From assembly GCA_001783215.1 (NCBI GenBank), contig MFRA01000005.1, forward strand, positions 329,423 through 393,422: 64,000 nt of DNA, given 5' to 3'. Every line of letters starts with the position of its first letter. Position 1 is the stretch's first letter. Positions 31,149 to 60,504 of the stretch are shown in pieces. The notes beneath the pieces are model-generated. The model searched no databases. It worked only from the letters and a program-made list of their open reading frames with translations, and was not told the origin of the DNA. The DNA comes from Candidatus Magasanikbacteria bacterium RIFOXYD1_FULL_40_23 (GTDB taxonomy: Bacteria > Patescibacteriota > Patescibacteriia > Magasanikbacterales > GWA2-37-8). Made by a program: the position numbers and the translations under genes.

Positions 31149-31178
31149 CCCATATTGCTACTAACCTGTTTATTTTGT

Positions 31179-42472: not shown

Positions 42473-42481
42473 ATTATTTAT

Positions 42482-43339: not shown

Positions 43340-43354
43340 TTATCATACTTTATA

Positions 43355-44467: not shown

Positions 44468-44474
44468 TTATATA

Positions 44475-44546
44475 GGCTGCGGCATATATTCTCGTTCGCT
44501 CTGATAAAATTAAAACATTTAATTCTTTCACTCATTCATTTCATAT
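44475..44546 (+). promoter_or_regulatory. conserved hairpin+leader cassette (family B), copy C
   Basis: GGCTGCGGC + ATATATTCTCGTTCGCTC ... TTTCACTCATTCATTTCATATATG. Confidence 0.6.
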
Positions 44547-45116: not shown

Positions 45117-45142
45117 GGGCTAAAGCCCCACTCATTTCGTAT
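45117..45142 (+). promoter_or_regulatory. conserved hairpin+leader cassette (family B), minimal copy D
   Basis: GGGCTAAAGCCCC + ACTCATTTCGTATATG. Confidence 0.5.
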
Positions 45143-45751
45143 ATGTTAAAAAGTCAGTCCGCTAAGACCAAAAAAAATTCTAAGTCCGGCCGCAAGGCCG
45201 TTTTTTTGGATAGAGATGGAACTATTATAAAACAGGTAGAGCTTATGCATTCTGTAGAAGAGTTGCATTTACTGCCTGGTGCAGCCCGTGCAATAAACGC
45301 TTTAAATAAATTAGGTTTTTTGGTAGTTATTGTTACTAATCAGCCAGTAGTGGCACGAGGTATTATAGGGCCAAAAGAAGTGGACCAAATACATGCGGTT
45401 TTAATCGAGCGATTAAATGGCAAGGGGGCTAAAATAGACGGTGTGTATTTTTGCCCACATCACCCGGAAGCTACTATGCCGGAATACCGTTTGCGCTGCC
45501 GCTGCCGCAAGCCGGAGCCGGGAATGATTTTAAAAGGCTTAAAGAAATTAAATATAAATCCGAAAAAAAGTTTCATGATTGGCGATGCCTTGATAGATGT
45601 GGTTTCTGGTAAAAAAGCAGGTGTAAAAACAATTTTGGTAAAAACCGGTCCGGGGCATGCTCGTTTGGATGAAAAATATAAAGATATTAAACCAGATTTT
45701 ACAGTTAAAAATTTGATGCAGGCAGTTAAAGAAATAACAAATAGTATTTAA
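45143..45751 (+). CDS. gmhB: D,D-heptose 1,7-bisphosphate phosphatase (HAD IIIA)
   Basis: HAD motif I FLDRDGT; GmhB-specific zinc loop CPHHPEATMPEYRLRCRCRKPEPGM. Confidence 0.75.
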   Translation: MLKSQSAKTKKNSKSGRKAVFLDRDGTIIKQVELMHSVEELHLLPGAARAINALNKLGFLVVIVTNQPVVARGIIGPKEVDQIHAVLIERLNGKGAKIDGVYFCPHHPEATMPEYRLRCRCRKPEPGMILKGLKKLNINPKKSFMIGDALIDVVSGKKAGVKTILVKTGPGHARLDEKYKDIKPDFTVKNLMQAVKEITNSI

Positions 45752-45755
45752 TATT

Positions 45756-46490
45756 ATGTCTAATATAAAACAAGCGGTTATTCTATGTGCTGGTTTGGGT
45801 ACTCGTTTGCGCCCCCTTACAGATACAATGCCCAAACCAATGATACCAATTTTAGGTAAGCCACTTTTGGAGTGGAATATAGAACAGTTTAAAAAACACG
45901 GAGTTACGGAATTTTTTATAAATCTTTATTATTTGCCGGATGTTATTCGTGATTATTTTGGCGATGGTGCCAAATGGGGAGTGAAGATTAATTATTTTCA
46001 GGAGAAAGATATTTTGGGTACTGCCGGCGGGGTGAAAAATTTCGCCAGTATGTTGGATGATAAGTTTTTTCTAATATACGGAGACATGATTAGTTTGATG
46101 GATTATTCCAAGATGGCCGAAGAGTTTGCCTCTCACCCAGATGCTATCGGTATGCAAAGAATGCAAAAAACCGATAATTATGCAGATGCAGATGTGGCTG
46201 AACTGGGGCCAGACGGCAGTTATCTTAAGATACATGCTAAGCCGCACACAGAGAGTTACCCAAATGCCTATCGTATGAAGGGTATATTTATTTTGCGAAA
46301 AGATATTTTGGAGTATGTTCCAGCTAGTACTTTTTATGAGCTTGGCAAGCAGCTTTTGCCAGACGCGGTAAAGGATGGTAAGAAGTTTTATAGCTATGAA
46401 TGCAAAGAGTATACAAAAGGCATAGATACAATGGAAAAATACCAGGAAGTAGAAGAATATTTGAAAAATAACGAAATTACAGTTTCATAG
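45756..46490 (+). CDS. hddC: sugar-1-phosphate nucleotidylyltransferase (heptose 1-phosphate guanylyltransferase-like)
   Basis: ILCAGLGTRLRPLTDTMPKPMIPILGKPLLEW NTP-transferase signature. Confidence 0.65.
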   Translation: MSNIKQAVILCAGLGTRLRPLTDTMPKPMIPILGKPLLEWNIEQFKKHGVTEFFINLYYLPDVIRDYFGDGAKWGVKINYFQEKDILGTAGGVKNFASMLDDKFFLIYGDMISLMDYSKMAEEFASHPDAIGMQRMQKTDNYADADVAELGPDGSYLKIHAKPHTESYPNAYRMKGIFILRKDILEYVPASTFYELGKQLLPDAVKDGKKFYSYECKEYTKGIDTMEKYQEVEEYLKNNEITVS

Positions 46491-46564
46491 GCCAATTCTT
46501 GACAGTTTTGATTATACAGGTTAGTTTAACCATAATAATTTCAATTTATTATATATAATATACT

Positions 46565-47287
46565 ATGAAAATATTTATAGATAGTGCTGATCTTAAGGAG
46601 ATTGAAAAGTATGTCAGTTGGGGAATTTGTGATGGTGTTACCACCAATCCTAGCATTTGTTTAAAATCCGGAGTAACGGGCGGTGAAGAAGGAATGAAGC
46701 AAAGATCAATTGAAATTGCTAATCTTATTGCGCCTCAACCACTAAGTGTAGAGGTAACTTCCGATGATATAGACCAGGTCTTTGCTCAGGCTAGAAAGTT
46801 TAATACTTGGGCAGACAATATTTCCGTAAAAGTTACTATTACCGATAGAAACGGTGCTTCACTTTTGCCTGCAGTATATAGACTCGTTAGCGAAGGTATT
46901 TCGGTAAATGTTACTGCTATGATGACCTTTAACCAAGCTATTATGGCTGCCAAGGCTATAAATGCCGGTTTAGAAAAAACCAATATTAAGAAAACTCATT
47001 TTATTAGTATTTTTGCCGGCAGAATTTCAGAAGAGCATGGGGTAGAGCATTCGCAAAAAGTTCTTGAAGATGTAAGGCAGTGGCTTGATTTTCATAACTA
47101 TAAAAATATTGAAATTATTGTTGGCTCAGTACGTAGTCCGGAAAATGTAAAATTGTGGGGCAAGAGTGGTGCCCATATTCTTACTATACCTCCAGAAGTA
47201 ATTGGTAAATGTTTGATGAATGCTCGTACCAAAGAAACAGTTGTGCAGTTCTTAAATGATGCCAATAAGGCCATGCAATCTCTCTAG
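46565..47287 (+). CDS. transaldolase / fructose-6-phosphate aldolase (TalC/FSA subfamily)
   Basis: FIDSADLKEI ... GVTTNPS and overall alignment to E. coli FSA; about 220-240 aa. Confidence 0.75.
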   Translation: MKIFIDSADLKEIEKYVSWGICDGVTTNPSICLKSGVTGGEEGMKQRSIEIANLIAPQPLSVEVTSDDIDQVFAQARKFNTWADNISVKVTITDRNGASLLPAVYRLVSEGISVNVTAMMTFNQAIMAAKAINAGLEKTNIKKTHFISIFAGRISEEHGVEHSQKVLEDVRQWLDFHNYKNIEIIVGSVRSPENVKLWGKSGAHILTIPPEVIGKCLMNARTKETVVQFLNDANKAMQSL

Positions 47288-47323: not shown

Positions 47324-48418
47324 ATGTCAAAGAATGGCGCCCAAACAATATCCGCTTGTCTTGTTATTTATAATGAAGAAAAAGTAATCAAGCAGTGTTT
47401 AGAAAGTATTAAAGATTTAGTTGATGAAATTATAGTTGTTCATGACGGGCAGTGTACGGACAGAACTTTAGAAATAGTTAAGCAATATACAGATAAAATA
47501 TTTGTTAGAGACCATCTAGTTCTCAACGAACCGCACTTAGTATTTGCTTTTGATCAAGCTAAATGTGAGTGGTTATTGCGCATGGATGCGGATGAGTTTT
47601 TTGATACTGCCGATCATGACAAGCTTCGCAAAATGCTAGCTTCTTCTGTTGCTGTAGACGGCTATACTTTAAATTGGGAGTTGTGGGACGGCGAAAAAAT
47701 AGTAACCTTTAAAGGCTTGCAGAAGTCTTGTTTTTTTAGGCGAAAGAATTTTCATTATATTGGTGTTTCACAAGAGGTTGGGTGGGTAGATGGCGAAATG
47801 AAAAAAGAAGAAATAGTTTTACATCACCGTCCTAATTATAATAATGTGGTGGGCGAGGCAGTAATGAAAAAAGCAAGCAAGTGGGTGCCTATCTACGCAA
47901 AATCTTTTTTTCCGGAGCTTTCTACATATGCCTGTTATAATACAACCCCAGACAAGTGGGTTAATTATGCCAAAAAAGTTCGCAAACACCCTGTTTTATA
48001 TTTACTTTTTTATCCGCTTAAAACATTCTTGGCTCAATTAAAAAACGGTCTATTATTTAGTTGGGTAGGGTGCAAGGTTGCTTTTCAGCATTATATTATT
48101 TATACATGGCTCTACTTACAGATATGGCAATTGCAAAGAAAAGTTGAGCCAGAAAAAACTGTTATTGGTGTTTTAAAAAAAATAGGAAAAGTATTGTATA
48201 AATACTGGATGAAGTTCGCTCATGTTTTGGGAACTATAAACGGTTTTATTATCCTCTTCGTTTTTTATTTTGTGATTATTGGCTTGTATGCGCTGGTGCA
48301 AAAAAGCATAATGTTGATTTCTAGATTAGTAACAAGAGAAAAAAAGAACGAGCCTACTTTTTGGAAACAAAAAATGGAGAAGGGTGATGGCTTGGATCAT
48401 TTAAAGTATCAATTTTAA
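47324..48418 (+). CDS. family-2 glycosyltransferase with C-terminal TM region (paralog of the 54992 gene)
   Basis: ISACLVIYNEEKVIKQCLESIKDLVDEIIVVHDGQCTDRTLEI; two C-terminal TM helices. Confidence 0.6.
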   Translation: MSKNGAQTISACLVIYNEEKVIKQCLESIKDLVDEIIVVHDGQCTDRTLEIVKQYTDKIFVRDHLVLNEPHLVFAFDQAKCEWLLRMDADEFFDTADHDKLRKMLASSVAVDGYTLNWELWDGEKIVTFKGLQKSCFFRRKNFHYIGVSQEVGWVDGEMKKEEIVLHHRPNYNNVVGEAVMKKASKWVPIYAKSFFPELSTYACYNTTPDKWVNYAKKVRKHPVLYLLFYPLKTFLAQLKNGLLFSWVGCKVAFQHYIIYTWLYLQIWQLQRKVEPEKTVIGVLKKIGKVLYKYWMKFAHVLGTINGFIILFVFYFVIIGLYALVQKSIMLISRLVTREKKNEPTFWKQKMEKGDGLDHLKYQF

Positions 48419-48420
48419 GT

Positions 48421-50220
48421 ATGTCCAAAGAAAATATTTACATCTTAGGACTGTCATTTGACTATCACGACTCTGCTGCCGCTTTAATAAAAGATGGCAA
48501 GGTTGTGGCAGCTGCTCAAGAAGAAAGATTTACACGAGAAAAACAAGATTCATCTTTGCCAGAAAATGCAATTAAATATTGTTTGGATTTTGCCGGTATT
48601 TCTGCCGACCGTTTGGACTACGTGGTATTTTACGAGAAGCCATTTATAAAATTTGAGCGTTTGATAAAAAATTATATTAACACATGGCCAAGAGGATTTA
48701 TATCTTTTGTTAAAGCCATGCTTGTTTTTCTTAAAACAAAACTTTGGGTAGAGAGTAGAGTTCGCAAAGCGTTGGGCGGGTATAAAGGCCAAGTATTGTT
48801 TACCGAGCATCACTATTCGCATGCTGCCAGCGCTTATTATTGTTCTAATTTTGAAGATGCGGTGGTAGTTACTATGGACGGAGTGGGTGAATTTGATACG
48901 AGTACCTTTGGTTATGGCAAAGGGAGCGACTTAAAGCTAACTCATACTATAGAATTTCCACATTCTTTGGGTCTGTTTTATTCCGCACTTACTTATTATT
49001 TGGGTTTCAAAGTAAACAGCGCTGAATATAAAGTTATGGGGCTTGCGCCTTATGGAGATCCGGATAAATATTACGATAAGTTTAAAGAGTTAATGGAAGT
49101 AAAAGAAGATGGGGGAATAAAACTAAACATGAAATATTTTTCATACGAGTATGGTTTGCGTATGACAAATAAAAATTTTGATAAGTTGTTTGGTGGTCCA
49201 GCCAGAAAACCAGAATCACCGCTAACTCAAAAAGAAAAAGATATTGCAGCTGCTTTGCAAAAAGTAACCAACGAAGTAGTGTTGAAAATTGTTGATTATG
49301 CCAGGTCTGTGCACCCTTCAAAAAACCTTTGCTTGGCTGGTGGTGTGGCCCTAAATTGTGTGGCAAATGGCAAGATTTTGGAGAAGAACTGGTTTGAGCA
49401 TATCTATATCCAACCAGCCGCAGGAGATGCTGGAGGGGCTGCTGGAGCGGCCTTGTTTGCCTATTTTAGCGGCTTGGGCAACACCTATCCGCTTGTCGAG
49501 GGTAAGGTAATGGATACGATATATCTTGGTCCAGAATATAGCGAAGCAGAGATAGAGAAGTTTTTAAATGATGAGGTAAAAAGTATTATTGGAGAAAATA
49601 ATAAAGTTATTTATACAAAATTATCCGGAGAAGAGGTTGTAAAACAAGTCTCTGATTTAATTACCGGCAATAATGTAATTGGTCTTTTTGGTGGGCGTAT
49701 GGAATATGGTCCGCGCTCTTTGGGCAATCGTTCTATTATTGCAGATGCACGCAACAAAGAAAATTGGCAAAAAGTAAATTTAAAAATAAAATTTAGAGAA
49801 AGCTTTAGGCCTTTTGCGCCTACTGTTTTAGAAGACAAATTATCCGAATGTTTTGATATTCCAGTACCAAGTCCCTATATGCTACTAGTGGCGCCAGTAA
49901 AAAGAACAGATGTACCAGCCATTACTCATGTAGATAATTCGGCCCGCATTCAATCTGTAAGCAGAGAGCAGAATCCAAGATATTACGATATTATAAAATC
50001 GTTTTACGACAAAACAGGTTGCCCAATAATAATAAATACATCATTTAATGTGCGTGGAGAGCCTATCGTGATGTCGCCTCGCGACGCTTTCAATACGTTC
50101 TTAAATACATTCATGGACTATCTTATTTTGGGAGATTTTATAATTTCCAAAAAAGATAATGAGCATTTGGTGGACAGCGAAAAAATGAAGACCTATTTGG
50201 GTAAGTTTAAATTGGATTAG
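48421..50220 (+). CDS. carbamoyltransferase (NodU/CmcH family)
   Basis: N-terminal ILGLSFDYHDSAAALIKDGKVVAAAQEERFTREK, HHYSHAASAYY, and a C-terminal YrdC/Kae1-like domain. Confidence 0.8.
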   Translation: MSKENIYILGLSFDYHDSAAALIKDGKVVAAAQEERFTREKQDSSLPENAIKYCLDFAGISADRLDYVVFYEKPFIKFERLIKNYINTWPRGFISFVKAMLVFLKTKLWVESRVRKALGGYKGQVLFTEHHYSHAASAYYCSNFEDAVVVTMDGVGEFDTSTFGYGKGSDLKLTHTIEFPHSLGLFYSALTYYLGFKVNSAEYKVMGLAPYGDPDKYYDKFKELMEVKEDGGIKLNMKYFSYEYGLRMTNKNFDKLFGGPARKPESPLTQKEKDIAAALQKVTNEVVLKIVDYARSVHPSKNLCLAGGVALNCVANGKILEKNWFEHIYIQPAAGDAGGAAGAALFAYFSGLGNTYPLVEGKVMDTIYLGPEYSEAEIEKFLNDEVKSIIGENNKVIYTKLSGEEVVKQVSDLITGNNVIGLFGGRMEYGPRSLGNRSIIADARNKENWQKVNLKIKFRESFRPFAPTVLEDKLSECFDIPVPSPYMLLVAPVKRTDVPAITHVDNSARIQSVSREQNPRYYDIIKSFYDKTGCPIIINTSFNVRGEPIVMSPRDAFNTFLNTFMDYLILGDFIISKKDNEHLVDSEKMKTYLGKFKLD

Positions 50221-50831
50221 AGTTCTACCGGTTTTATCCGAGCCGAAAGAAGTTTCTTGTAAAATTGATTGGTCCAGCCAATAAAGTTTTTGCCGCCGGC
50301 AATGCGTTTGGCTGTAGGCGTGCGTAACCAATAAAAATCATCATATATTAAACGAATATCATTTTGTATTTTTTTCCAATCAGCACTTGGGTTTTGTTTT
50401 TCTCGTGTCCAAAGTATTGGTCCAAACAGATCTAGTTTATCGGCGTCGCGTAGTATTACTGCCTCCCAGTATTTATCAGCAAAGTTATTCCAGTGGTTGC
50501 GTATGGAGTAAAGTATGATGGTTTTTTCTTGACGAGACAGGGAAGAATACATAGGGTCTGCACGAAACCATTGGCGGCATAATTCGTATGAAATTTCGTG
50601 GTGGGTAATACCCGGGAATTTTTGTTCGTCGGCCCGGCCTATATCGTGCAGCAGCCCGCTTAGAGCTGATAAAAAAATATTGCCACCGTGAGCCTTTGCT
50701 AAACGTATGGCGAAAAGTCGAACTCTGTCAGCGTGGCCGTAGTCGTGGCTTGGAGCAGGGTTACTTTTCAAAAAATCACGGACTTTACTCTCTGTGTGTT
50801 TAATAATAGATTTTTGTTCTTTTGTGTACAT
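50217..50831 (-). CDS. HD-domain phosphohydrolase
   Basis: H...HD...D motifs (SHDYGHADRV, LLHDIGR, LRDADKLD). Confidence 0.6.
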   Translation of the reverse strand: MYTKEQKSIIKHTESKVRDFLKSNPAPSHDYGHADRVRLFAIRLAKAHGGNIFLSALSGLLHDIGRADEQKFPGITHHEISYELCRQWFRADPMYSSLSRQEKTIILYSIRNHWNNFADKYWEAVILRDADKLDLFGPILWTREKQNPSADWKKIQNDIRLIYDDFYWLRTPTAKRIAGGKNFIGWTNQFYKKLLSARIKPVEL

Positions 50832-50934
50832 AGTCTATTTAGTAGATAAATTAGAGCATCTTCTAAGGCTTAATTTTATCATAAATAGACGCCTGGTCAA
50901 CTAAAATTAAGTGTTTTTTGCTAGGCAATGTTAG

Positions 50935-50964
50935 TTGACTGTAATTTAAGCGGCATGCTACAAT
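50935..50964 (+). promoter_or_regulatory. candidate sigma70-type promoter (TTGACT-18-TACAAT) in a divergent intergenic region
   Basis: hexamers seen directly; flanked by direct repeats AACTAAAATTA(A)G at 50899-50912 and 50981-51004. Confidence 0.35.
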
Positions 50965-51009
50965 AATAGCGTATTTTTAACTAAAATTAGAAGTAAAATT
51001 AAGTAAAGT

Positions 51010-52191
51010 ATGTCCGAGGGGAAGAAAAATATAATAACACTCGCAGTTGCGGTAGTCTTTTCTCTTTTGGTTATAGAGGGGATGCTTCGTCTTTTTGAAA
51101 CTCAAACCTATGTGGCTCTTTGGCAGGTAAACAAAGACAATATGGTGGTTTTAAAACCAAATTTAGATAAAAATATTTTTGATAATGAAGATTTAAAGTA
51201 CCATCATGTAAAAATTAATAGTTTAGGTTTTTTGGGAGAAGACGTAAACCAAGAAAAACCAATCGACACTTTGCGTATTGCAGTTATGGGGGATTCATAT
51301 GTGGCGGCCACTGGCGTTGATTTTGATAAAACTTTTCCGTACTTATTAACAAAAAAGGTGCAAGATTTGCTTGCCACTGCCACAAGTTCAGCATACAAAA
51401 AAGTAGAAGTCTTAAATTTTGGTATGGGTGGTACCGGCACGGTAGACGAGATGAAGTATTATGAAAAGTATGCGCAAAAGTATAATCCAGATGTAGTAGT
51501 TTTAAGTTTCTATCTTCAAAACGATACAGTTGATAATAGTTTGAATTATGAGCATCGAGATGCAATGCTATCTTCCAAGGAACAATGGAGTACTTTTCCT
51601 CAGTATGGATCAACACAAGTAAAAAGTTTTGTATCTATTAAAGATAAAGTATATAGAAAATCAGCTATTGTAAGGTTTGTAGATAGGGTGGTGAGAAGTA
51701 GTCCTAAATTAAGCGGTCTAGCTGTAAAGCTTGGACTGCATCGTCCGCCAGTTAAAGGTGAGTCTGGATTAGATATTCCATTTGATGATTATTATTACAT
51801 AGAGCCGTTAGATAGCCAGCGCGCAGAATACCTAAAGTTTAGTTCTGATCTATTGAATAATTTTAAAAAGCAGTTAGACACAGACGGTGTTAAATTTGCA
51901 ATCATGTTTATTCCAGAAGGAAAGACTATAAACGACGATTTGATAAATGCGTTCAAAAATACCTACCCTAAACTAAAAGATTTTAATTTTAATCCTAAGG
52001 GGATGGAAAATAAGCTAATTTCTGCAGTAGATCCTTCAGTAAAAGTTTTGAATTTACGCGAAACAATGACAAAACAAGTATCAGAAAATAAAGAAATGTA
52101 TAAAAATGGTACGGGTCATTTTGCCGAAGGCGGGCACGAGGTAGCTTCGGATGCTTTGGCTAATTTTATCTTTGATTCATTTTTTAAGTAA
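51010..52191 (+). CDS. SGNH/GDSL-family hydrolase or O-acyltransferase-like protein, membrane-anchored
   Basis: N-terminal TM helix; GDS block IAVMGDSYVAATG; C-terminal GHF...GGH. Confidence 0.5.
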   Translation: MSEGKKNIITLAVAVVFSLLVIEGMLRLFETQTYVALWQVNKDNMVVLKPNLDKNIFDNEDLKYHHVKINSLGFLGEDVNQEKPIDTLRIAVMGDSYVAATGVDFDKTFPYLLTKKVQDLLATATSSAYKKVEVLNFGMGGTGTVDEMKYYEKYAQKYNPDVVVLSFYLQNDTVDNSLNYEHRDAMLSSKEQWSTFPQYGSTQVKSFVSIKDKVYRKSAIVRFVDRVVRSSPKLSGLAVKLGLHRPPVKGESGLDIPFDDYYYIEPLDSQRAEYLKFSSDLLNNFKKQLDTDGVKFAIMFIPEGKTINDDLINAFKNTYPKLKDFNFNPKGMENKLISAVDPSVKVLNLRETMTKQVSENKEMYKNGTGHFAEGGHEVASDALANFIFDSFFK

Positions 52192-52222
52192 ATCGATTTA
52201 ATAAATAATCAATAGTAATTAT

Positions 52223-52384
52223 ATGAATGATACGATAGGAATATTAAAACAACTTTGGAGCTTTTTAAAGATGAGAAAGAAGTGGTGGTTGGCGCCGATT
52301 TTAGTAATCTTATTTTTGTTTGCGGGGCTTTTGGTCTTTGCACAGACATCTCCACTTGCGCCGTTTATTTATACATTGTTCTAA
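52223..52384 (+). CDS. small hydrophobic ORF (53 aa) immediately upstream of, and overlapping, the GT2 gene start
   Basis: MNDTIGILKQLWSFLKMRKKWWLAPILVILFLFAGLLVFAQTSPLAPFIYTLF contains a single TM helix; its stop overlaps the GTG start at 52387. Confidence 0.25.
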   Translation: MNDTIGILKQLWSFLKMRKKWWLAPILVILFLFAGLLVFAQTSPLAPFIYTLF

Positions 52385-52386
52385 AT

Positions 52387-53079
52387 GTGAAGCTTTCTAT
52401 AATAGTTCCGGTATATAATGAGAAAAATACTATACAAGAAATCTTGAAAAGATTAGATGTTTTAGATTTGGGTGTGGTAGAAAAAGAATTAGTTATTATC
52501 GACGATTATTCCACCGACGGCACCCGCCAAATTATTGAGGGCTTGCCTGCAAAATATAAAAAGATTTTTCATAATCAAAATCAGGGCAAGGGCGCCGCCA
52601 TTCGCAGCGGCCTAAAGGAAGCAAGTGGTGATTATATCGTGATACAGGATGCGGATATGGAATATGACCCGAACGATTTGAAAGTTATGGTCGACAAGAT
52701 GATTGCGGAAAAGCTTCAGGTATTGTATGGTTCGCGCCGGCTTAAAAAAGAGAATGTTCAGTATTCTGGTTTATTGTATTACTTTGGAGGTTGGTTGCTT
52801 ACGGTAATAGCCAATATTTTGTACGGACAAAAAATAACAGATGAGCCTACTTGCTATAAAATGTTTCAAGCAAATTTTATTAAAAGTTTACCGCTGCAAT
52901 GCAGTCGTTTTGAGTTTTGTCCAGAGGTAACAGCGCTGTCGGCTTTGCGAGGTGTAAAAATAACCGAAGTGCCAATTTCGTATTTTCCTCGCCACAGAAA
53001 CGAAGGTAAAAAAATTCGTTGGCAAGATGAGTTTGTGGCTATCTGGGTGTTATTAAAGTATAGGTTCAAAAAGATATGA
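52387..53079 (+). CDS. polyprenyl-phosphate sugar synthase-type GT2 (DPM1/ArnC/GtrB-like)
   Basis: from the GTG start: KLSIIVPVYNEKNTIQEIL ... IIDDYSTDGT ... IVIQDADMEYDP. Confidence 0.7.
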   Translation: MKLSIIVPVYNEKNTIQEILKRLDVLDLGVVEKELVIIDDYSTDGTRQIIEGLPAKYKKIFHNQNQGKGAAIRSGLKEASGDYIVIQDADMEYDPNDLKVMVDKMIAEKLQVLYGSRRLKKENVQYSGLLYYFGGWLLTVIANILYGQKITDEPTCYKMFQANFIKSLPLQCSRFEFCPEVTALSALRGVKITEVPISYFPRHRNEGKKIRWQDEFVAIWVLLKYRFKKI

Positions 53080-53684
53080 GGGAACTAGCATTTGGTGAAA
53101 ACAAAATATCTGTTTTAGATAAAGTAATATTTTTTTTCCGAGCAAGGCGCATAAAAAAATATTTGCAAGATTGTGATGTAGTTGTAGATGCTGGCTGCGG
53201 CCATTCTGCTACTCTTCTGAAATGGATTTTGAAAACCTTTTCTGTCAAAAAGGGGATTGGCCTAGATGTTTCTTTTGAAGGTGGTCTAACAGACGAAAAA
53301 TTGAATTTAATAAAAAGTGATTTTTCTAATCCGTTACCGCTTGGCGACAACCTGGCTGATTATGTTATTTCTACGGCGGTTGTAGAACATTTATCAGATC
53401 CTTTGTTTCATGCAAAAGAAATAGAGAGGGTATTAAAGCCCGGTGGTAAGTTGTTGCTTACCACGCCCTCAAAGTTGGCAAAACCAATTTTGGAGTTTTT
53501 GGCTTTTAAATTGGGTGTTATAGACAGAGACGAAATAGCCGATCATAAACAATATTTTAATGTTGCAGAGCTAAAGGAGCTGCTGGTTAAATGTGGGTTC
53601 CGCCCTGAAGATATTTCTGCCCACACTTTTTTATTTGGACTAAATAATTTTATTTTAGCAAAAAAGTATGTCAAATCTAATTGA
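53076..53684 (+). CDS. class I SAM-dependent methyltransferase
   Basis: VVDAGCGHSAT ... VEHLSDP ... LKPGGKLLLTTP; ATGA overlap with the upstream gene. Confidence 0.6.
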   Translation: MRELAFGENKISVLDKVIFFFRARRIKKYLQDCDVVVDAGCGHSATLLKWILKTFSVKKGIGLDVSFEGGLTDEKLNLIKSDFSNPLPLGDNLADYVISTAVVEHLSDPLFHAKEIERVLKPGGKLLLTTPSKLAKPILEFLAFKLGVIDRDEIADHKQYFNVAELKELLVKCGFRPEDISAHTFLFGLNNFILAKKYVKSN

Positions 53685-54873
53685 AAAGTTAAAAAAACAT
53701 AAAATAATATTAGCCCTCTTTTTGTTGGCGACCCTAAACCTCCTTGTTTTTTGGAGATTGTATGGTTTTCATCCAAACAACGATACGGGCGGATTTATTG
53801 ATCTGATTAATTTTTTTAGAGGCCAAGACATTGCCTTTTTTGTGCCAGCTAGATATTTGAACCCGTTCTATGCGATAGTTGGTTCTAAGATATTGTTTTT
53901 CATGTCTGCGGAGCATAGTTTGATTACCACTAACATATTTTTTTATTACGGTCTTGTTTTCCTTACTTATGGTTTGATTAGGCGCGTATTTAAAAATAAT
54001 TTTATTGGTTTTACATCGGCTATTATCGTGATGACTGGCTATGCTATGGTGCGATATGCCCTTACTCAAGTTCAGGATATTGGTGGTTATTTCTGGTTTC
54101 TTTTAACTTTGTATGCCGGATGGAGATGGTGGGAGGAAAAAGACAAAAAGTGGCTTTATTTAGGCGGTGTAGCCGTAGCTTTTGGGCTTTTAACAAAGGA
54201 GAGTGGCGCTATGGGGGCCTTGTTTGTGGGTATTTTGTTTTTACTTGATAAAGTTTCTTGGAAAGAAAGAATATTTAATTTTATTAGGTTCTCTATTCTT
54301 CCATTTGCGACTATTGTTATCAATGCGTTTAGAGGAATGGATGTAGATTATAATTCCGCTCGTTGGTTTGTCTTTGCTTGGAAAGAATATGCCAAAGATA
54401 ATTTTACTCTGTTTAAATGGTTTGGTGTTCACACCACCACGTATAATATTCTGTGGTTTTTTATTTTGGTTGGTTTATACTTCTTAATCAAAAATTGGAA
54501 AGATTTGGATAGAAATATAAAAATTTATTTATTGGCAGTCATACCTTCAAGCCTCTCTTATTACATGTGGTCGTTATTTATAGCCAGAACTGTATTTATT
54601 TCCGCTTGGCTTTTCGTGCCGATTGCTAGCTATGGTATATATAGCGTATATGCCAAAGGGCGTATGTATAAGCACGTAGCCGTAGGAATGATTATTTTGG
54701 CTATGGTTACCCCGTACGTTCTGCAAAGTACCCTTCGTTACGCTACTATTTTTACAATAATGAATATTTGTAAGAATAATATCCCTTGTACTTGGAACTA
54801 TTTTTGGAAAAATAGACAGCAGTTTAGCACGACTGGGGACGTGCTTTACTTTCAGTATAAATTGGACCAATAG
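53668..54873 (+). CDS. polytopic membrane protein, putative GT-C-fold glycosyltransferase
   Basis: 401 aa with about 11 TM helices, directly downstream of a polyprenyl-phosphate sugar synthase. Confidence 0.4.
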   Translation: MSNLIEKLKKHKIILALFLLATLNLLVFWRLYGFHPNNDTGGFIDLINFFRGQDIAFFVPARYLNPFYAIVGSKILFFMSAEHSLITTNIFFYYGLVFLTYGLIRRVFKNNFIGFTSAIIVMTGYAMVRYALTQVQDIGGYFWFLLTLYAGWRWWEEKDKKWLYLGGVAVAFGLLTKESGAMGALFVGILFLLDKVSWKERIFNFIRFSILPFATIVINAFRGMDVDYNSARWFVFAWKEYAKDNFTLFKWFGVHTTTYNILWFFILVGLYFLIKNWKDLDRNIKIYLLAVIPSSLSYYMWSLFIARTVFISAWLFVPIASYGIYSVYAKGRMYKHVAVGMIILAMVTPYVLQSTLRYATIFTIMNICKNNIPCTWNYFWKNRQQFSTTGDVLYFQYKLDQ

Positions 54874-54991
54874 ACCAGGATTATCGCTTAAATGGCTTGC
54901 TTTTGGGGCTAAAACATGCTAGCATTAAGTGTGCTAGAGGTGGTAATTTTTTGTAAAAACGGTTGGTTTGTTAGGTGTAAATGGTTGCCCT

Positions 54992-55801
54992 ATGCCAAGT
55001 AAAAAAGACACAATTTCTGCTTGTTTGGTAGTTTATAACGAAGAAGCTGTTATTGAGCGTTGCTTGCAAAGTATAAAAGGTCAGGTGGATGAAATAATAA
55101 TAGTCCATGATGGCCCTTGCGCAGACAAGACTTTAGAAATAGCAAAACGCTATACTGACAAAATTTTTGTAAGAGATCATGCCGGGGTAATGGAGGCGCA
55201 TTTGGTATTTGCGTTCCAGCAAGCCCAAAGCGAATGGTTGTTGCGCATAGATGCAGATGAGTTTTTGGATGCAGATAGTTTTTTAAAAATTAAAGAAGCG
55301 ATACAGCCAGAAACTGTAGATGCACTGATTTTGAACTGGGAAATGTGGAATGGTCAAGAAACAATCAGTTTGCCGGGGTTGCAAAAAATGTGTCTGATGA
55401 GAAAAAACAGATTTCATTATTGTGGTGTGCCCCATGAAAATGGCGAGGTAGATGGTCAAGTAAAAAAGATTGACGCATTTTTACATCATCGTCCAGCGTA
55501 CAACAATGTGGCCTGGTCATCCTTTCTGCGAAAGAGTAAAAAATGGGTTCCAATACACGCCAACTATTTTTTTCCAGAAAACATTTCTTTTACATGTTTT
55601 AATAGTAGTTCAGACAAATGGATAGAACACGCAAAGTATGTGCGTACACATATTTGGCGATATTTATTTTTTAAACCAATTAAAATGTCTCTAGGCCAGC
55701 TCAAAAATGGTCTATGGAAAAGTTTTATTGGTATACAGGTTTCCGTTCAAGTTTATGTCTATTACACCATGCTTTATTGGCAAATAATAAAAAAACTATA
55801 A
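54992..55801 (+). CDS. family-2 glycosyltransferase (paralog of the 47324 gene)
   Basis: ISACLVVYNEEAVIERCLQSIKGQVDEIIIVHDGPCADKTLEI, about 60% identical to the N-terminal half of the 47324 product. Confidence 0.6.
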   Translation: MPSKKDTISACLVVYNEEAVIERCLQSIKGQVDEIIIVHDGPCADKTLEIAKRYTDKIFVRDHAGVMEAHLVFAFQQAQSEWLLRIDADEFLDADSFLKIKEAIQPETVDALILNWEMWNGQETISLPGLQKMCLMRKNRFHYCGVPHENGEVDGQVKKIDAFLHHRPAYNNVAWSSFLRKSKKWVPIHANYFFPENISFTCFNSSSDKWIEHAKYVRTHIWRYLFFKPIKMSLGQLKNGLWKSFIGIQVSVQVYVYYTMLYWQIIKKL

Positions 55802-55824
55802 TATAAAAACTTATTTCGAATATA

Positions 55825-55900
55825 GGGGCTAAAGCCCATATATTCTCATTCACTCGCATAAAGTTAAATACATTTAACTTTATGCTCATTCATTTCGAAT
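55825..55900 (+). promoter_or_regulatory. conserved hairpin+leader cassette (family B), copy E
   Basis: GGGGCTAAAGCCC + ATATATTCTCATTCACTC ... CTCATTCATTTCGAATATG, preceded by a partial tail copy CTTATTTCGAATAT at 55810-55823. Confidence 0.65.
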
Positions 55901-57013
55901 ATGCAAAAGAATTTTTGGTATGGTAAAAGAGTGCTAGTAACCGGAGGAGAAGGTTTTCTTGCGTCCCATTTAGTTAAACAGCTTATCGATGTGGGTGCAT
56001 GTGTAACCACTACCGTTCGTCATGCTCGTCCGCTTAACACTTTAAATCTTATTCAAAAAGGTCCTAAGAAATCTGCTAGCCCAGATGTAGAGCACTCCGA
56101 TTTGTTGGATTTTTTTGCTTTGCGCCGAATTTGTGACCGTCACCAGATAGATACTATATTTCATCTAGCCGCCTCTGCTATTGTAAGTGATGCTGCCAAT
56201 TCTCCAATGTCTACAATAGAAAATAACGTGGTAGGAACTTTAAATATTTTAGAAGTAGCTCGCATCAACCATATTCCGCGCGTGGTAATTGCTTCGACAG
56301 ACAAATCCTACGGAGATCATGCCAACGATAATTTGGAGAAATTACCTTATAGAGAAAATTATGCTTTGCGCGGACTGGATGTATATAGCGCCTCCAAAGT
56401 TTGTGCAGATGTTTTGAGCCAGACATATTCCTACCAGTTTAAATTACCGGTTGTTGTTTTGCGACCTTGCAATATGTATGGTCCTGCAGATCTAAATTTT
56501 TCTCGTCTTATTCCGCGCACTATTATGTGTTTGTTGTCTGGCAGAGCGCCGCATATCAATGCAGGCAACGCAGATGTATTGCGAGAGTATATGTATATAG
56601 AAGATGTAGTGCAGGGCTATTTGTTGGCAGCCGAAAAGGTGTCAGATATTTATGGAGAAAACAATCAAAATATGCCAAAGCATGGCAAAGAAACCTATGG
56701 CTGGGCTGCGTTTAATTTGGGATCATACACAGAAAAAGATTTACAAAATATTTCCAAATGCGACAAGATCCGCAGCGTTACCACAGTTATTGATATGTTA
56801 AGAAAAAAGATTAAAAATATTGAGCCGGTTGTAAAAGCAAAAGCAGCTAATTTTATAGAAATCCCAGATCAGTATTTAGATGGTGGTAAATTAGGCAAGT
56901 TAGGATTTAAACCCAAAGTTAATTTTGAACAAGGCATAGACAAAACTATTAGCTGGTACAAAGAACACTTTGACGATTTGTCCGGCTTAGCAGAGAGATA
57001 CATAGCCAATTAA
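55901..57013 (+). CDS. NAD-dependent nucleotide-sugar epimerase/dehydratase (4,6-dehydratase-like)
   Basis: VLVTGGEGFLASHL Rossmann motif; YSASK catalytic YxxxK. Confidence 0.6.
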   Translation: MQKNFWYGKRVLVTGGEGFLASHLVKQLIDVGACVTTTVRHARPLNTLNLIQKGPKKSASPDVEHSDLLDFFALRRICDRHQIDTIFHLAASAIVSDAANSPMSTIENNVVGTLNILEVARINHIPRVVIASTDKSYGDHANDNLEKLPYRENYALRGLDVYSASKVCADVLSQTYSYQFKLPVVVLRPCNMYGPADLNFSRLIPRTIMCLLSGRAPHINAGNADVLREYMYIEDVVQGYLLAAEKVSDIYGENNQNMPKHGKETYGWAAFNLGSYTEKDLQNISKCDKIRSVTTVIDMLRKKIKNIEPVVKAKAANFIEIPDQYLDGGKLGKLGFKPKVNFEQGIDKTISWYKEHFDDLSGLAERYIAN

Positions 57014-57066
57014 ATTACGCGCCGCGTTTCAAATGACGTTACGCGGCATGATTTCGCTAAATCAAT

Positions 57067-58236
57067 ATGTCTACCAGAAAAATAACCGTAGCTCAGATCC
57101 GTGGAGATGGGTTAAGTGATCGCGAAACCAAAACCTGGGAATATTTTTCTGACGATATTGTGCAGACAGTTTTTGCATCTCGAAAAAACGTTTATTCTCA
57201 ATCCGCTTTGCCTTTTCCAATCATAACATTGCCAGCTAGTAGTGATAATTTTTTATTCAAAAATTACTATAAATATTTTTTTGGTCAATACAAAAGAATG
57301 TTTGGTTTAGAAAAACATTTAGCCGGGTTTGACGTGGCGCATGCGGGTGAGCTTTATAATTATTATACGTACCAAGCTGTCTCGGCAAAAAAGATAAATA
57401 AGAATTTAAAAGTAGTAGCTACAGTTTGGGAAAATAGTTTTGGCAGATTTGAATATAATTACTGGCCGGGATTTAAAATCCCACCAGCTTATTGGCGTCG
57501 TCAGCTCAAAGCGGTTATGGATCGCAACAAAGATGGAGTAGATAAGTTTTTACCAGTCTCTCAAGATGCGGCTGGTTTGTTGTCAGATTACGGCGTTGCA
57601 GATAGTCAAATTCAAGTAGTTGTTCCTGGCATCATCCCAACTCCTGAAGGCAAAATAGTTGTACCTACGCAATTCGCTGGTAAGCAAATTTACTTAATGG
57701 TTAATCGTCTGGTAAAGGAAAAAGGGGTCTATGATGTTTTGTATGGCTGGAGAATATATCTTTCCAAAGCATCAGACGCCAGTCGCAAATTACTTGTTAT
57801 CGTAGGAGAAGGTCCGGAGCTAGGTAATATGCGCCGACTCGTTAAAGAGTGGCAAATGGAGAATAAAATTGCTTTTGTTAATCAGATGCCGTATAGCGAA
57901 GTTTTGGGTCTTTATAAGGGTGCGCAGTGCTTAATTTTGGGCAGTATTCCACGACCAACCTGGCAAGAACAGTTTGGCTATGTGCTCGCCGAAGCTATCT
58001 GTGCCGGTGTGCCTATTGTAGCCACCTATAGTGGTGCAATCCCAGAAGTGGTGGGTGAGGCTGGTTTGCTTGTGCCGCCCGCTCATCCTATTGCGCTGGC
58101 AAATGCCTTGCTTTCAACAGATGACGCCTCTGTTTATAATCGTCTAAAAACAGGTTGTCAAAAAGAAGCAAAGAAGTTTGCGGCTGAAAGCTACGCTCGT
58201 CAAGTCAGTGATATTTACAGATCTTTAGTTGGTTAA
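57067..58236 (+). CDS. family-4 (GT-B) glycosyltransferase
   Basis: C-terminal EQFGYVLAEAICAGVPIVATYSGAIPEVV EX7E region. Confidence 0.55.
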   Translation: MSTRKITVAQIRGDGLSDRETKTWEYFSDDIVQTVFASRKNVYSQSALPFPIITLPASSDNFLFKNYYKYFFGQYKRMFGLEKHLAGFDVAHAGELYNYYTYQAVSAKKINKNLKVVATVWENSFGRFEYNYWPGFKIPPAYWRRQLKAVMDRNKDGVDKFLPVSQDAAGLLSDYGVADSQIQVVVPGIIPTPEGKIVVPTQFAGKQIYLMVNRLVKEKGVYDVLYGWRIYLSKASDASRKLLVIVGEGPELGNMRRLVKEWQMENKIAFVNQMPYSEVLGLYKGAQCLILGSIPRPTWQEQFGYVLAEAICAGVPIVATYSGAIPEVVGEAGLLVPPAHPIALANALLSTDDASVYNRLKTGCQKEAKKFAAESYARQVSDIYRSLVG

Positions 58237-58256
58237 AATAGTAATTAGACTGAAGT

Positions 58257-58955
58257 GTGGTTATGCTAAGGGTTTCAATTGTTATTCCTACTTATAACGA
58301 AGCAAAAAACCTTCCGCTTTTGGCCGAAGAAATTTTTGGCGTAGTTGATCGAAATCAATTTGATGTGGAGTTAATTATTGTAGATGATAATTCTCCAGAC
58401 GGAACTGGAGCGGTGGCAGATGATTTAGCCAAAAAATATCCAATACAAGTTATTCATCGCGCAGGCAAGCTAGGTTTGGGTAGTGCAGTTCGTGAAGGGT
58501 TTGCCAAATCCAATCGTGAAGTATTGGGGGTAATGGATGCCGATCTAAGCCACGATCCGCAGCATCTTAATCAAATGCTTTCACTTTTAAGTGAGTATGA
58601 TTTGGTGGTAGGCAGTAGATTTGAGCAGGGAAGTACTGTAGAGCAATGGAAATGGTGGCGACGTATTATTTCGCAAGTAGGCGTGTTTGTTACGTATATG
58701 CTTACAGGCGTAAAAGATCCGCTTAGCGGCTTTTTCTTCTTCCGCCGTTTTATTTTAGCCAATGTCGAACTTAGCACCACTGGTTATAAAATATTATTAG
58801 AAATTTTAGTTAAAGGTAATCACAAAAAAGTAAAAGAAATCCCGTTTCGTTTTCGTATCAGGAAATTTAGCACCTCTAAACTGGACAAGAAAGAATATTG
58901 GTTATTTTTAAAACAAATTATTTCCTATAGCTTGTATAAAATTTTTAAGAAATAG
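58257..58955 (+). CDS. polyprenyl-phosphate sugar synthase-type GT2 (DPM1/ArnC-like)
   Basis: VSIVIPTYNEAKNLPLL ... IIVDDNSPDGT ... GVMDADLSHDP. Confidence 0.75.
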   Translation: MVMLRVSIVIPTYNEAKNLPLLAEEIFGVVDRNQFDVELIIVDDNSPDGTGAVADDLAKKYPIQVIHRAGKLGLGSAVREGFAKSNREVLGVMDADLSHDPQHLNQMLSLLSEYDLVVGSRFEQGSTVEQWKWWRRIISQVGVFVTYMLTGVKDPLSGFFFFRRFILANVELSTTGYKILLEILVKGNHKKVKEIPFRFRIRKFSTSKLDKKEYWLFLKQIISYSLYKIFKK

Positions 58956-58959
58956 AGTT

Positions 58960-60504
58960 ATGTGGTTGAGAATTAAAAATTGGTGCAGTCTAAATAAGTT
59001 TTTGGTTGCCCTATTAATTTTATCTGCGTTTCTGCTTTTTTATCGTATTTCTTATAGAACTTTTTGGGGAGACGAAATGGCAGTTCTAGATTACCTCAAA
59101 GAAAGTCCGCGAGAATTTTTAGTTAATTATTGGAATAAACCGGATAATCATCCGCCTCTGTATTATTTTTTGGTTGTTTTGGTTAGTAAGATCTTGCCAT
59201 GGAATGAATTTATGGTGCGTTTTGTGTCTGCAGTATCTGGGTTAGCTACTGTGTATTTGGTATATATATTTTCGTTTCGTGTTAGTGGTCAAAAAAAGTT
59301 GGCACTGCTCGCAGGGCTATTTACCGCCGTTTCATCTTATTTTGTCCTTATTTCACAGATGGCTAGGTATCATAGTTTGGCGGCGTTGTTTTCGCTTCTA
59401 ACCTTTTATTTTTTCTACCAGCTTTTCGTAGAGGGGTATTCTAAGCGGGCGTGGTATTTGTTTTTAGTTTCGTTAGTAGCTACTGGTTATACAGACTACC
59501 CGCATTGTTTTTATGTGGTTGTGATTGTAAATACCTTTTATTTATACAGCCTAATAAAGCGTAAAGCCAGCGTGTCGTTCTTGAAATGGGTGGGGGGACA
59601 ATTGGCGGCAGTTGTTTTGCTTAGCCCTTTGGCGTGGATGATTTATAACAGAATTGCGGTGCAAGGCGATGGTGGTTGGGATAAAATAAACTTGCTAGCG
59701 AATTCTTGGGTGCATATTGTAATGGCTATATTTTTCCATATTTACAGTTTTTTATTTGGAGAAAATGTTTTTCCTTGGAATTATTTTTTCTTTTTATCTG
59801 GGGTGGCTGTGTTGTTGGGGGTGTTGTTTGGGTTTATATATGGACTCCGCAAAAAGTCGTGGACCTCTAGCCAGTTGTTTGTGGTAGCTTTAAGTGTATT
59901 TACAGTGGTCTTAAATACATTCTTCATGAACATGGCTAACCCTCGTTATAATTTTATAGTGTATCCAAAGTTTGGTTTTGTGGCTTTTCCTTTGTGGGTT
60001 ATGGTATTTGTCTTATGTTTAAGCAAACTGCCAGATAAAATTAGGATAGCTTTATTTTCTTTATGGGCAGTGGTGGCTATTTTTGGCTTATATAATTTTT
60101 ATCAGGCAACAAATTATTTAAACCCTAGTTATTTTCGCACCTTTGAATCTTTTGAATATATTCGTGATCATGCCAAAGAGGGTGAGTATTTTGCAATTTC
60201 TCCACATGCTGGACCTGGTTTTTTTGAGTTTTATAAAGGCAAATATTTTAATAGCTTAAAAACAGCTGATTGGAAGCAGATTCCGATTCTAGAAAAACAG
60301 GCAAGGCTTTGGTATTTCTCGGCTGGTTCAGAAGGTGCCGAAACTACCTTTGATCCATCTATGGTAGTTCCGGAAGGTTACAAAATTCTAGAACAGTTTG
60401 ATAGCGTGCCGCTTGATCCAACATTTAAAAAAGTAAAAGAAAAAGTATTGGGTCGTCCTGGCTATACTTATAAATATAGTCTATTTTTATTAGAAAAAAT
60501 TTAA
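58960..60504 (+). CDS. GT-C-fold membrane glycosyltransferase (ArnT/PMT, GT39/83-like)
   Basis: 514 aa with about 12 TM helices and a first-loop acidic motif FWGDEMAV; directly downstream of an ArnC-like gene. Confidence 0.55.
   Translation: MWLRIKNWCSLNKFLVALLILSAFLLFYRISYRTFWGDEMAVLDYLKESPREFLVNYWNKPDNHPPLYYFLVVLVSKILPWNEFMVRFVSAVSGLATVYLVYIFSFRVSGQKKLALLAGLFTAVSSYFVLISQMARYHSLAALFSLLTFYFFYQLFVEGYSKRAWYLFLVSLVATGYTDYPHCFYVVVIVNTFYLYSLIKRKASVSFLKWVGGQLAAVVLLSPLAWMIYNRIAVQGDGGWDKINLLANSWVHIVMAIFFHIYSFLFGENVFPWNYFFFLSGVAVLLGVLFGFIYGLRKKSWTSSQLFVVALSVFTVVLNTFFMNMANPRYNFIVYPKFGFVAFPLWVMVFVLCLSKLPDKIRIALFSLWAVVAIFGLYNFYQATNYLNPSYFRTFESFEYIRDHAKEGEYFAISPHAGPGFFEFYKGKYFNSLKTADWKQIPILEKQARLWYFSAGSEGAETTFDPSMVVPEGYKILEQFDSVPLDPTFKKVKEKVLGRPGYTYKYSLFLLEKI

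Follow-up and report, generated by a model that had tools for sequence, protein, structure and literature searches.

A 64,000-nucleotide stretch of Candidatus Magasanikbacteria bacterium RIFOXYD1_FULL_40_23 (contig MFRA01000005.1, positions 329,423 to 393,422; hereafter the window, in whose coordinates all positions are given) very probably carries two distinct multi-component transmembrane glycosylation modules, which lie in a cassette conserved in Magasanikbacteria-like Patescibacteria. Each module combines a short GT2 enzyme related to polyprenyl-phosphate sugar synthases (GT2-A, GT2-B) with a polytopic membrane protein of the GT-C type (GT-C-A, GT-C-B; Table 1), and we are confident that the two work by the synthase-plus-GT-C mechanism, in which a lipid-linked sugar is made on the inside of the membrane and used on the outside. 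An earlier note on this DNA, made from the sequence alone, had assigned two such pairs to the region 52223-60504. All four open reading frames (ORFs) are present at the coordinates it gave, and the region does contain both pairs, although position 52223 is the start of a separate ORF for a DUF5989 protein and not of GT2-A. The pairs themselves stand with two amendments: a methyltransferase gene (MT-A, 53076-53684) sits between GT2-A and GT-C-A, and the modules, while in one locus, are set apart by another GT2, an SDR 4,6-dehydratase-like gene and a GT4 glycosyltransferase.

Predicted synthases and membrane transferases of the two modules

GT2-B, for which the ATG at 58263 is the likelier start, matches the dolichyl-phosphate mannose synthase of Pyrococcus furiosus (PfDPMS, PDB ID: 5mlz) with an E-value of 1.4e-50 and 42.8% identity over 215 aligned columns, its residues 4-222 aligning to residues 1-222 of PfDPMS; this is a better match than that to ArnC (1.4e-9). 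It is as near to PfDPMS as is human DPM1, which shares 39% identity with the archaeal enzyme (PMC5526996). Fourteen of the 17 PfDPMS functional positions checked are identical in GT2-B (E12, D38, D39, R63, L69, D89, D91, H94, R117, R131, S135, K178, R202 and K208 in PfDPMS numbering), the differences being Q93S, F177Y and E206T. In PfDPMS, D39 is a ligand of the guanine, D89, H94, R117 and K178 of the mannose, and D91 and Q93 of the metal, while the phosphate of dolichyl phosphate (Dol-P) is bound by R117, R131 and S135 and the acceptor loop is closed by R202 and K208 (PMC5526996). D94-A-D96 of GT2-B aligns to D89/D91, the DXD metal motif, and the ligand set is kept as R121, R135, S139, D94, H99, K178 and D44. 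On this sequence evidence we predict that GT2-B is a DPM1/Ppm1-type polyprenyl-phosphate mannose synthase and that the sugar of module B is probably mannose; enzymes that use GDP-mannose, GDP-mannose dehydratase (GMD) and fucose synthase, are encoded within the same locus at 30096-32123. GDP-heptose was also considered as the donor on account of a nearby heptose pathway and found no positive support, the O4 and O6 ligands (R117 and K178) being unchanged.

The GT2-B sequence stops at the start of the PfDPMS transmembrane (TM) domain, and no TM segment was predicted in GT2-A or GT2-B, so that membrane association through TM helices of their own is not expected. This is no objection to their assignment, because PfDPMS delta230-352, from which the TM domain has been removed, still binds to the membrane and retains full activity (PMC5526996), and in relatives the synthase domain is fused to the GT-C.

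GT2-A has a GTG start that fits the N-termini of its homologues. It aligns over residues 1-210 to PfDPMS (30% identity, E 8.8e-18) and over residues 2-206 to ArnC (E 1.5e-12), and its top NCBIfam model is AglJ, an archaeal Dol-P-hexose synthase (E 3.4e-28). Retained are E12, D39/D40, D88xD90, R117, R202 and K208, with D88-A-D90 aligning to the metal motif D89/D91 of PfDPMS; an equivalent of H94 is missing. Because only R117, D89 and D39 of the PfDPMS ligand set are kept, we do not file GT2-A under DPMS/Ppm sensu stricto, and it is best described as a more divergent member of the AglJ/ArnC/DPMS clade with a predicted sugar other than that of GT2-B. The full length of each GT2 can be aligned to solved polyprenyl-phosphate glycosyltransferases, namely PfDPMS and ArnC, with the interface helices and the acceptor loop (R202/K208) included, in keeping with the DPM1-like topology that the earlier note had expected of them.

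Both membrane proteins exceed the Pfam gathering threshold of the PMT_2 family (PF13231, 26.1 bits), GT-C-A with 33.3 and GT-C-B with 46.0 bits. Membership of GT39, which the earlier note had proposed as one possibility, was not borne out by sequence: against the PMT family (PF02366, threshold 22.7 bits) GT-C-A is marginal at 24.7 bits and GT-C-B falls below at 20.5 bits, and Pfam detected no PMT_4TMC or MIR domain in either protein. An assignment to GT39 or GT83 could not be made by sequence because solved PMT and ArnT chains are matched neither by the sequences nor by their profiles. The fold is clearer. Alignment-based AlphaFold2 models were obtained with pLDDT values of 90.9 (GT-C-B) and 90.8 (GT-C-A) and a pTM of 0.91, and when these were compared with the PDB using Foldseek, the top 40 matches of each were all GT-C enzymes at probability 1.0, among them Pmt4, Pmt1/2, ArnT, ALG12/9/6/3, STT3/PglB/AglB, Emb/Aft, DPY19 and PimE. 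No transporter, polymerase or ligase of the Wzy/WaaL kind occurs among these 40, and transporters rank lower with probabilities below 0.3. GT-C-B has its best E-value with Pmt4 (5.9e-6), followed by matches that include ALG12, ArnT (PDB ID: 5f15, TM-score 0.57) and PglB/STT3; GT-C-A matches STT3/AglB/PglB/ALG12 and the same ArnT structure (TM-score 0.61). As modelled, both GT-C-A and GT-C-B adopt the GT-C fold, as had been suspected from their sequences.

The conserved residues of the two proteins point in the same direction. The GT-C superfamily has four conserved luminal-loop patterns, including an acidic motif soon after TM1 and later R/K patterns (PMC6801728), and the invariant residues of both GT-Cs correspond to these four. 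The first-loop DE motif noticed earlier in GT-C-B is D38-E39, nine residues past TM1 and invariant in 56 homologues; W36, P66, R87 and R136 are likewise invariant, and in the segments predicted to be outer loops the patterns conserved in full or to at least 90% are D38-E39, N63-H-P-P-L67, R136, D179-Y-P-H182 and R329..P336-K337. In GT-C-A the acidic position is D39, and the invariant set comprises D39, T40, R62, R129, D137, K177, E178, R307, C368 and C374, the last two being cysteines of the C-terminal tail; its predicted outer-loop patterns at the same level are D39-T40, R62..P66, R129..D137, K177-E178 and R307. GT-C-B ends in an alpha/beta domain of ~130 amino acids that is predicted to lie outside the membrane.

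For a topology with 11 TM helices and the N-terminus inside, the predicted inner loops have a K+R density of 0.31-0.35, compared with 0.08-0.09 for the outer ones, which fits the positive-inside rule. From secondary structure and charge we infer an N-in topology with the acidic loop outside. Natural fusions of the kind described below support this arrangement: a GT2 that uses nucleotide sugars, and is therefore cytoplasmic, is joined to the N-terminal side of TM1, which would place the N-terminus inside and hence the acidic loop outside.

Pairing, fusion and the conserved cassette

In the window neighbouring genes of the modules overlap or sit 4 nt apart, and the association of synthase and transferase recurs in other species. 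Among loci with enough flank in GTDB species-representative genomes, GT-C-B is directly preceded by GT2-B, or fused to it, in 18 of 20 cases, nine of these 18 being fusions in the same frame with no stop; GT-C-A has GT2-A directly before it in 13 of 13, with three fusions. Fusion is also common among the homologues at large. Thirty of 93 close GT-C-B homologues are single GT2-GT-C proteins of 720-750 amino acids in which a GT2-B orthologue makes up the first 230 residues and runs straight into TM1, and 15 of 85 homologues of GT-C-A consist of GT2-A and GT-C-A in one chain of 618-673 amino acids. These are unlikely to be assembly chimeras because they come from 45 independent clusters. Pairing of synthase and transferase is far beyond chance and, since it recurs both across loci and as fusions, is not accidental. 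It does not extend to the whole of the wider PMT_2-like superfamily: a distant member of the GT-C-B family (L009 in our set of related loci; E 6e-59) has no GT2 neighbour. The GT-C-B profile retrieves 67,646 cluster representatives at E <= 1e-3 and 1,137 at E <= 1e-30, which makes GT-C-B a member of a very large and mostly uncharacterised PMT_2-like radiation. In a scaffold from a sister sample (L004, 9341-10000, corresponding to 58380-58500 of the window) GT2-B looks split into two ORFs; a frameshift or pseudogene was rejected here, the split being an artefact of a scaffold gap, a run of N in place of ~110 bases.

Judged on their sequences, neither module is a duplicate of the other. A recent duplication of the pairs was rejected because the GT2s are 30% identical over just 120 residues, while the GT-Cs are unrelated by BLAST and related only by profile (hhalign probability 91%, E 1.2e-6).

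In most relatives, which are Magasanikbacteria-like genomes, the modules stand side by side in the order GT4, GT2-A, GT-C-A, GT2-B, GT-C-B, often followed by a methyltransferase gene, MT-B; the window holds a rearranged form of this cassette. Module A is absent from five related loci. The GT4, whose top PDB matches are MshA and BshA (E ~1e-12), accompanies the cassette in all 19 loci that have adequate flank. MT-B adjoins GT-C-B in 14 of 22 orthologous loci and is called with the same start in L003. The position of MT-A is empty in L001, L006-L008 and most genome loci and occupied in L018. MT-A was considered as an integral third component of module A and rejected because almost none of the related loci has it at that position; it is an accessory gene of variable occurrence, inserted locally in module A of the window. 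Orthologues of the GT2 at 54968-55801 lie beside the cassette in most loci, often upstream. The neighbouring SDR enzyme matches the NCBIfam model of CDP-glucose 4,6-dehydratase (4.6e-45, below the family cut-off) and has orthologues with 77-83% identity in L011, L025, L028 and L037. The DUF5989 gene is found upstream of GT2-A in L001 as well, and probably belongs to the upstream carbamoyltransferase/SGNH module rather than to the pairs.

The window sequence is identical to aquifer-metagenome scaffolds and to NCBI contig MFRD01000023.1 (assembly GCA_001783315.1), and the named homologues come from Candidatus Magasanikbacteria and other Patescibacteria (Candidate Phyla Radiation, CPR). Among the related loci, many of L011, L013-L016, L020-L022, L025, L028-L030 and L037 are titled 'uncultured Gammaproteobacteria bacterium', and one 'Candidatus Udaeobacter', despite a cassette of the Patescibacteria type; these titles look like placeholders or mis-binned taxonomy.

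Proposed mechanism and its alternatives

We propose that GT2-B is bound to the membrane on its cytoplasmic side through its amphipathic interface helices and through GT-C-B, and would transfer mannose from GDP-mannose to a polyprenyl phosphate, presumably undecaprenyl phosphate (Und-P). The lipid-linked mannose would then be flipped across the membrane, and GT-C-B would pass the sugar to an acceptor in an active site formed by its outer loops, with D38-E39, HPPL, R136, DYPH and R329..P336-K337. Module A would follow the same route through GT2-A and GT-C-A with a different sugar, so that the two modules, in one order or the other, would add two different residues. The logic of loading inside and transferring outside that the earlier note had likened to ArnC/ArnT, GtrB/GtrC and Ppm1/Pmt is supported by the fold of the transferases, by the homology of the GT2s and by the fusions that link synthase to transferase. 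The acceptor may be a cell-surface glycoconjugate made by the large glycan locus around the cassette and decorated after its export, as in the Csd, Gac, Gtr and Gtl systems; the context of the glycan locus leads us to favour, tentatively, a glycan over a protein or a lipid.

Several observations weigh against this proposal. GT2-A has no equivalents of the PfDPMS residues R131, S135 and K178. When GT-C-A and GT-C-B were searched against all PDB chains, with phmmer and with hmmsearch using profiles built from 56 homologues of GT-C-B (A1) and 62 of GT-C-A (A2), there was no match even at E = 1-10, and the Foldseek TM-scores are moderate (0.46-0.61). A putative catalytic role of D38/E39 in GT-C-B and D39 in GT-C-A is argued from position and invariance only. 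Members of both orthologue groups all derive from metagenomes. There is no GtrA-type flippase in the window, and in 28 of 29 related loci the surroundings of the cassette contain neither a Wzx nor an EamA orthologue, a Wzx orthologue lying within 8 kb of the cassette in L018 only. The Wzx flippase and the PglL/WaaL-like protein that the earlier note had grouped with the pairs do exist, the latter as a Wzy_C/TPR protein, but they lie 17-32 kb upstream. Flippase genes of such systems are often unlinked (PMC8035078), which makes the lack of linkage weak evidence; the Wzx protein (33828) is a candidate flippase for the lipid-linked sugars, and the EamA protein (23785) likewise a distant candidate.

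Monoderm bacteria possess comparable multi-component systems, such as CsbB/GtcA/YfhO, CsdAB/CD/EF with CflA, GacI/J/K/L, GtsABC and YkcC/YkcB, and several pairs per genome are known, three each in B. subtilis and L. lactis (PMC8035078). As in these, the gene for a GT-A Und-P-sugar synthase stands beside that for a polytopic GT-C, and both GT-Cs of the window belong to PMT_2, the family that includes GacL, CsdD/F, GtsC, GtlB and YkcB (PMC8035078). The GacI-type variant is similar also in having a synthase without a TM domain of its own; its flippase is of the Wzx type. Unlike the monoderm systems, however, the cassette is not linked to a GtrA-type flippase or a GacJ-like helper, its synthases are minimal (230 amino acids) whereas CsbB and GtrB carry C-terminal TM helices, and its relatives often fuse synthase and transferase. 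Such fusion is neither reported in PMC8035078 nor found in our literature searches, which turned up no relevant work on either the GT-C enzymes of Patescibacteria or GT2-GT-C fusions. While the mechanism of loading inside and transferring outside is itself well known, the frequent fusion of each pair into one protein in relatives is the unusual point.

Module B resembles the DPM1/Ppm1 and PMT/Pmt partners in the metal motif of GT2-B (DADLSH, compared with DADLQH in PfDPMS), in the DE dipeptide just past TM1 of GT-C-B and in the best Foldseek E-value of the latter, which is with Pmt4. It differs from PfDPMS in that GT2-B has no TM domain, and from PMT in that GT-C-B scores too low for PF02366 and shows no sequence relation to solved PMTs that could be detected. 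M. tuberculosis Ppm1 (Rv2051c) is a natural fusion of a membrane domain and a Ppm synthase domain, and the membrane partner of mycobacterial Ppm is an Lnt-like or anchor domain, not a GT-C that consumes its product. Here, as in that case, a synthase domain without TM helices is fused to or stands beside a membrane partner depending on the species; the fusions among our relatives, in contrast, join producer and consumer. With ArnC/ArnT and GtrB/GtrA/Gtr* the modules share the making of an Und-P-sugar inside and GT-C transfer outside; ArnC aligns full-length with GT2-A, and ArnT 5f15 gives the highest or near-highest TM-scores for both GT-Cs. Unlike those systems, they come without ArnE/F or GtrA flippase genes and without genes of the 4-amino-4-deoxy-L-arabinose (Ara4N) pathway, lipid A or O-antigen is not an expected acceptor in this lineage, and sequence similarity to ArnT is undetectable.

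These resemblances suggest other readings. Module B might carry out Ppm1/Pmt-like protein O-mannosylation of Ser/Thr on secreted or surface proteins such as pilins or the S-layer, a modification that Actinobacteria and eukaryotes make. By sequence, GT2-B is a bona fide DPM1-type synthase; GT-C-B has the PMT-like DE dipeptide after TM1, a weak PF02366 match and Pmt4 as its best Foldseek hit, and with 514 amino acids it is close in length to actinobacterial Pmt. Yet the PF02366 score is below the cut-off, the PMT_4TMC and MIR domains were not detected, a PDB search with profile A1 gives no PMT chain up to E = 1, the cassette lies amid polysaccharide genes and always with a GT4, and the characterised PMT_2-type GT-Cs of monoderm bacteria, GacL, CsdD/F, GtsC and GtlB, have wall polysaccharides and teichoic acids as their acceptors (PMC8035078). 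We regard protein O-mannosylation as unlikely. The constant presence of the GT4 (19 of 19 loci) would also suit a membrane-anchored lipoglycan comparable to the mycobacterial PIM/lipomannan (LM), in which the GT4 would glycosylate a lipid primer that is then flipped and extended outside by GT-C-A and GT-C-B with polyprenyl-phosphate sugars. The PIM/LM pathway likewise combines a Ppm-type synthase with several GT-Cs, and the GT4 has weak matches to Mgs (4.7e-11), GlcNAc-PG synthase (1.7e-8) and PimB' (1.4e-5). Its matches are generic, however, with MshA and BshA the best; the GT-Cs are of the PMT_2 type and not GT87/PimE-like, PimE ranking low in Foldseek, and no genes for the biosynthesis of a lipid anchor were identified, all of which makes a lipoglycan improbable.

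An ArnC/ArnT-type modification, placing an aminopentose or other sugar on the head group of a membrane lipid and so altering surface charge, is very improbable. ArnC and ArnT are among the sequence and structure matches, and UDP-glucose dehydrogenase and SDR genes occur in the locus, but the signature of GT2-B is that of DPMS (1.4e-50) and not ArnC (1.4e-9), and no aminotransferase, formyltransferase or deformylase gene adjoins the cassette; Patescibacteria are not known to make lipid A. The short GT2s could instead be ordinary cytoplasmic enzymes that elongate a repeat unit linked to undecaprenyl diphosphate, next to unrelated polymerases, ligases or transporters by accident. The GT2 family is very large, the GT2s at 35134, 36129, 47324 and 54968 in this locus are of the elongating kind, and neither short GT2 has a TM helix. 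This reading is essentially refuted by the full-length alignment of both to polyprenyl-phosphate glycosyltransferases, which in GT2-B includes the ligands of the Dol-P phosphate, by the GT-C identity of all the top fold matches, and by recurrent adjacency and fusion, which contradict chance linkage.

Surroundings of the cassette and significance

Table 1. Coordinates and family matches of the modules, their neighbours and other candidate parts of the window.
Feature	Position	Strand	Family match or remark
DUF5989 small single-TM protein, 53 aa	52223-52384	+	PF19451, E 1.7e-22
GT2-A, polyprenyl-phosphate sugar synthase-like GT-A enzyme, 230 aa, GTG start	52387-53079	+	PF00535, E 1.9e-31
MT-A, class I S-adenosylmethionine (SAM) methyltransferase	53076-53684	+	Methyltransf_11/23, E ~2e-12; both ends overlap neighbours (GT2-A, GT-C-A)
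GT-C-A, transferase of modelled GT-C fold, 401 aa, ~11 TM helices	53668-54873	+	PMT_2 33.3 bits; PMT 24.7 bits
GT2 with SunS-like N-terminus, paralogue of 47324-48418	54968-55801	+	PF00535, E 8.1e-19
SDR NDP-sugar 4,6-dehydratase-like enzyme	55901-57013	+	Epimerase/GDP_Man_Dehyd, E ~1e-47
GT4 (GT-B fold, retaining) cytoplasmic glycosyltransferase	57067-58236	+	Glycos_transf_1, E 1.6e-22
GT2-B, predicted DPM1/Ppm1-type synthase catalytic domain, 232 aa	58257-58955	+	PF00535, E 8.6e-30
GT-C-B, transferase of modelled GT-C fold, 514 aa, ~11 TM helices	58960-60504	+	PMT_2 46.0 bits
MT-B, Methyltransf_23 methyltransferase, N-terminal CxxC...CxxC segment	60523-61380	+	PF13489, E 8.2e-29
Wzx/MOP-family flippase	33828-35129	+	Polysacc_synt, E 4.6e-21
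Third short ArnC/DPMS-like GT2, 245 aa, DGD motif	22981-23718	+	ArnC 1.2e-8, PfDPMS 9.6e-8, both full-length
EamA/DMT transporter, beside third short GT2	23785-24672		EamA, E 2e-32
Wzy_C (O-antigen ligase/polymerase-like) protein with C-terminal TPR repeats, 712 aa	19972-22110		

The window has a G+C content of ~38%, and from ~19.9 kb to its end nearly all genes on the + strand serve glycan biosynthesis. The locus encodes the Wzy_C/TPR protein, the Wzx flippase, GMD and fucose synthase, a heptose-nucleotide pathway and a carbamoyltransferase, together with ~10 glycosyltransferases and six methyltransferases. At its upstream end, the region 19972-24672 contains the Wzy_C/TPR protein, a methyltransferase gene, the third short GT2 and the EamA/DMT transporter; this GT2 may be a third synthase and, together with the transporter as a DMT-type flippase, may form a third module for a lipid-linked sugar. 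The stretch 24000-28431 has a G+C content of 0.46-0.52 compared with ~0.38 elsewhere, and holds ORFs of 150 (24912-25364) and 230 amino acids (25607-26299), a weak, sub-threshold DUF218 match (26457-27185) and a gene of the inositol-monophosphatase family (27382-28431); it may be a horizontally acquired island in the glycan locus. Next to it, at 28566-30086, lies a polytopic membrane protein of 506 amino acids, which was examined as a third GT-C and rejected, having no local Pfam match and no relation to profile A1 by hhalign. Its homologues, some of 751-760 amino acids, carry only the precomputed label PF26314.

Further downstream, 40107-47287 encodes a GHMP kinase, a SIS isomerase, a HAD phosphatase, a nucleotidyltransferase and a transaldolase, interleaved with a UDP-glucose dehydrogenase, an SDR enzyme and a GFO/IDH/MocA oxidoreductase. 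The set looks like a pathway of the GDP-D-glycero-D-manno-heptose type, and L001 and L007 likewise have heptose genes of this kind upstream of the cassette. In the window they are followed at 47324-52384 by genes for a GT2 whose hydrophobic tail is SxtJ-like, a carbamoyltransferase (E 1.9e-90), an SGNH/GDSL-like protein and DUF5989, as well as by an HD-domain gene on the minus strand; together these look like a recurrent O-carbamoylation-type module, found also in L001. The GT2 paralogues at 47324-48418 and 54968-55801 share a SunS-like N-terminus (ISACLV.YNEE..., read by eye in the translations), and one of them lies with the heptose and carbamoyl genes, the other inside the cassette region. 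Outside the glycan locus, translations at 992-4120 were read as a VirB4-like ATPase of 622 amino acids with small membrane proteins upstream, which suggests an apparatus related to type IV secretion or conjugation.

For annotation, these results define a cassette of GT4, GT2-A, GT-C-A, GT2-B, GT-C-B and methyltransferase genes, which are now labelled just 'glycosyltransferase family 39' or 'hypothetical'. Of specialist interest are how often producer and consumer are fused, how small the parts are (a synthase of 230 and a GT-C of 401 amino acids) and the predicted DPM1-grade mannose synthase in the CPR. The single-chain fusions would be handy targets for structural and biochemical studies of how the enzyme that makes a lipid-linked sugar hands it to the one that uses it, and of whether this requires a separate flippase. 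In a more speculative version, which we consider a long shot, fused or paired GT2-GT-C proteins would be self-contained machines that load, flip and transfer, the GT-C domain receiving and translocating the polyprenyl-phosphate sugar with no separate flippase; if true, this would be a streamlined solution for the reduced genomes of the CPR. More broadly, the mechanism proposed for the two modules underlies the decoration of O-antigens, teichoic acids and cell-wall polysaccharides as well as protein O-mannosylation, and our analysis would extend such extracytoplasmic glycosylation dependent on lipid carriers to the CPR, whose cell envelopes are almost uncharacterised.

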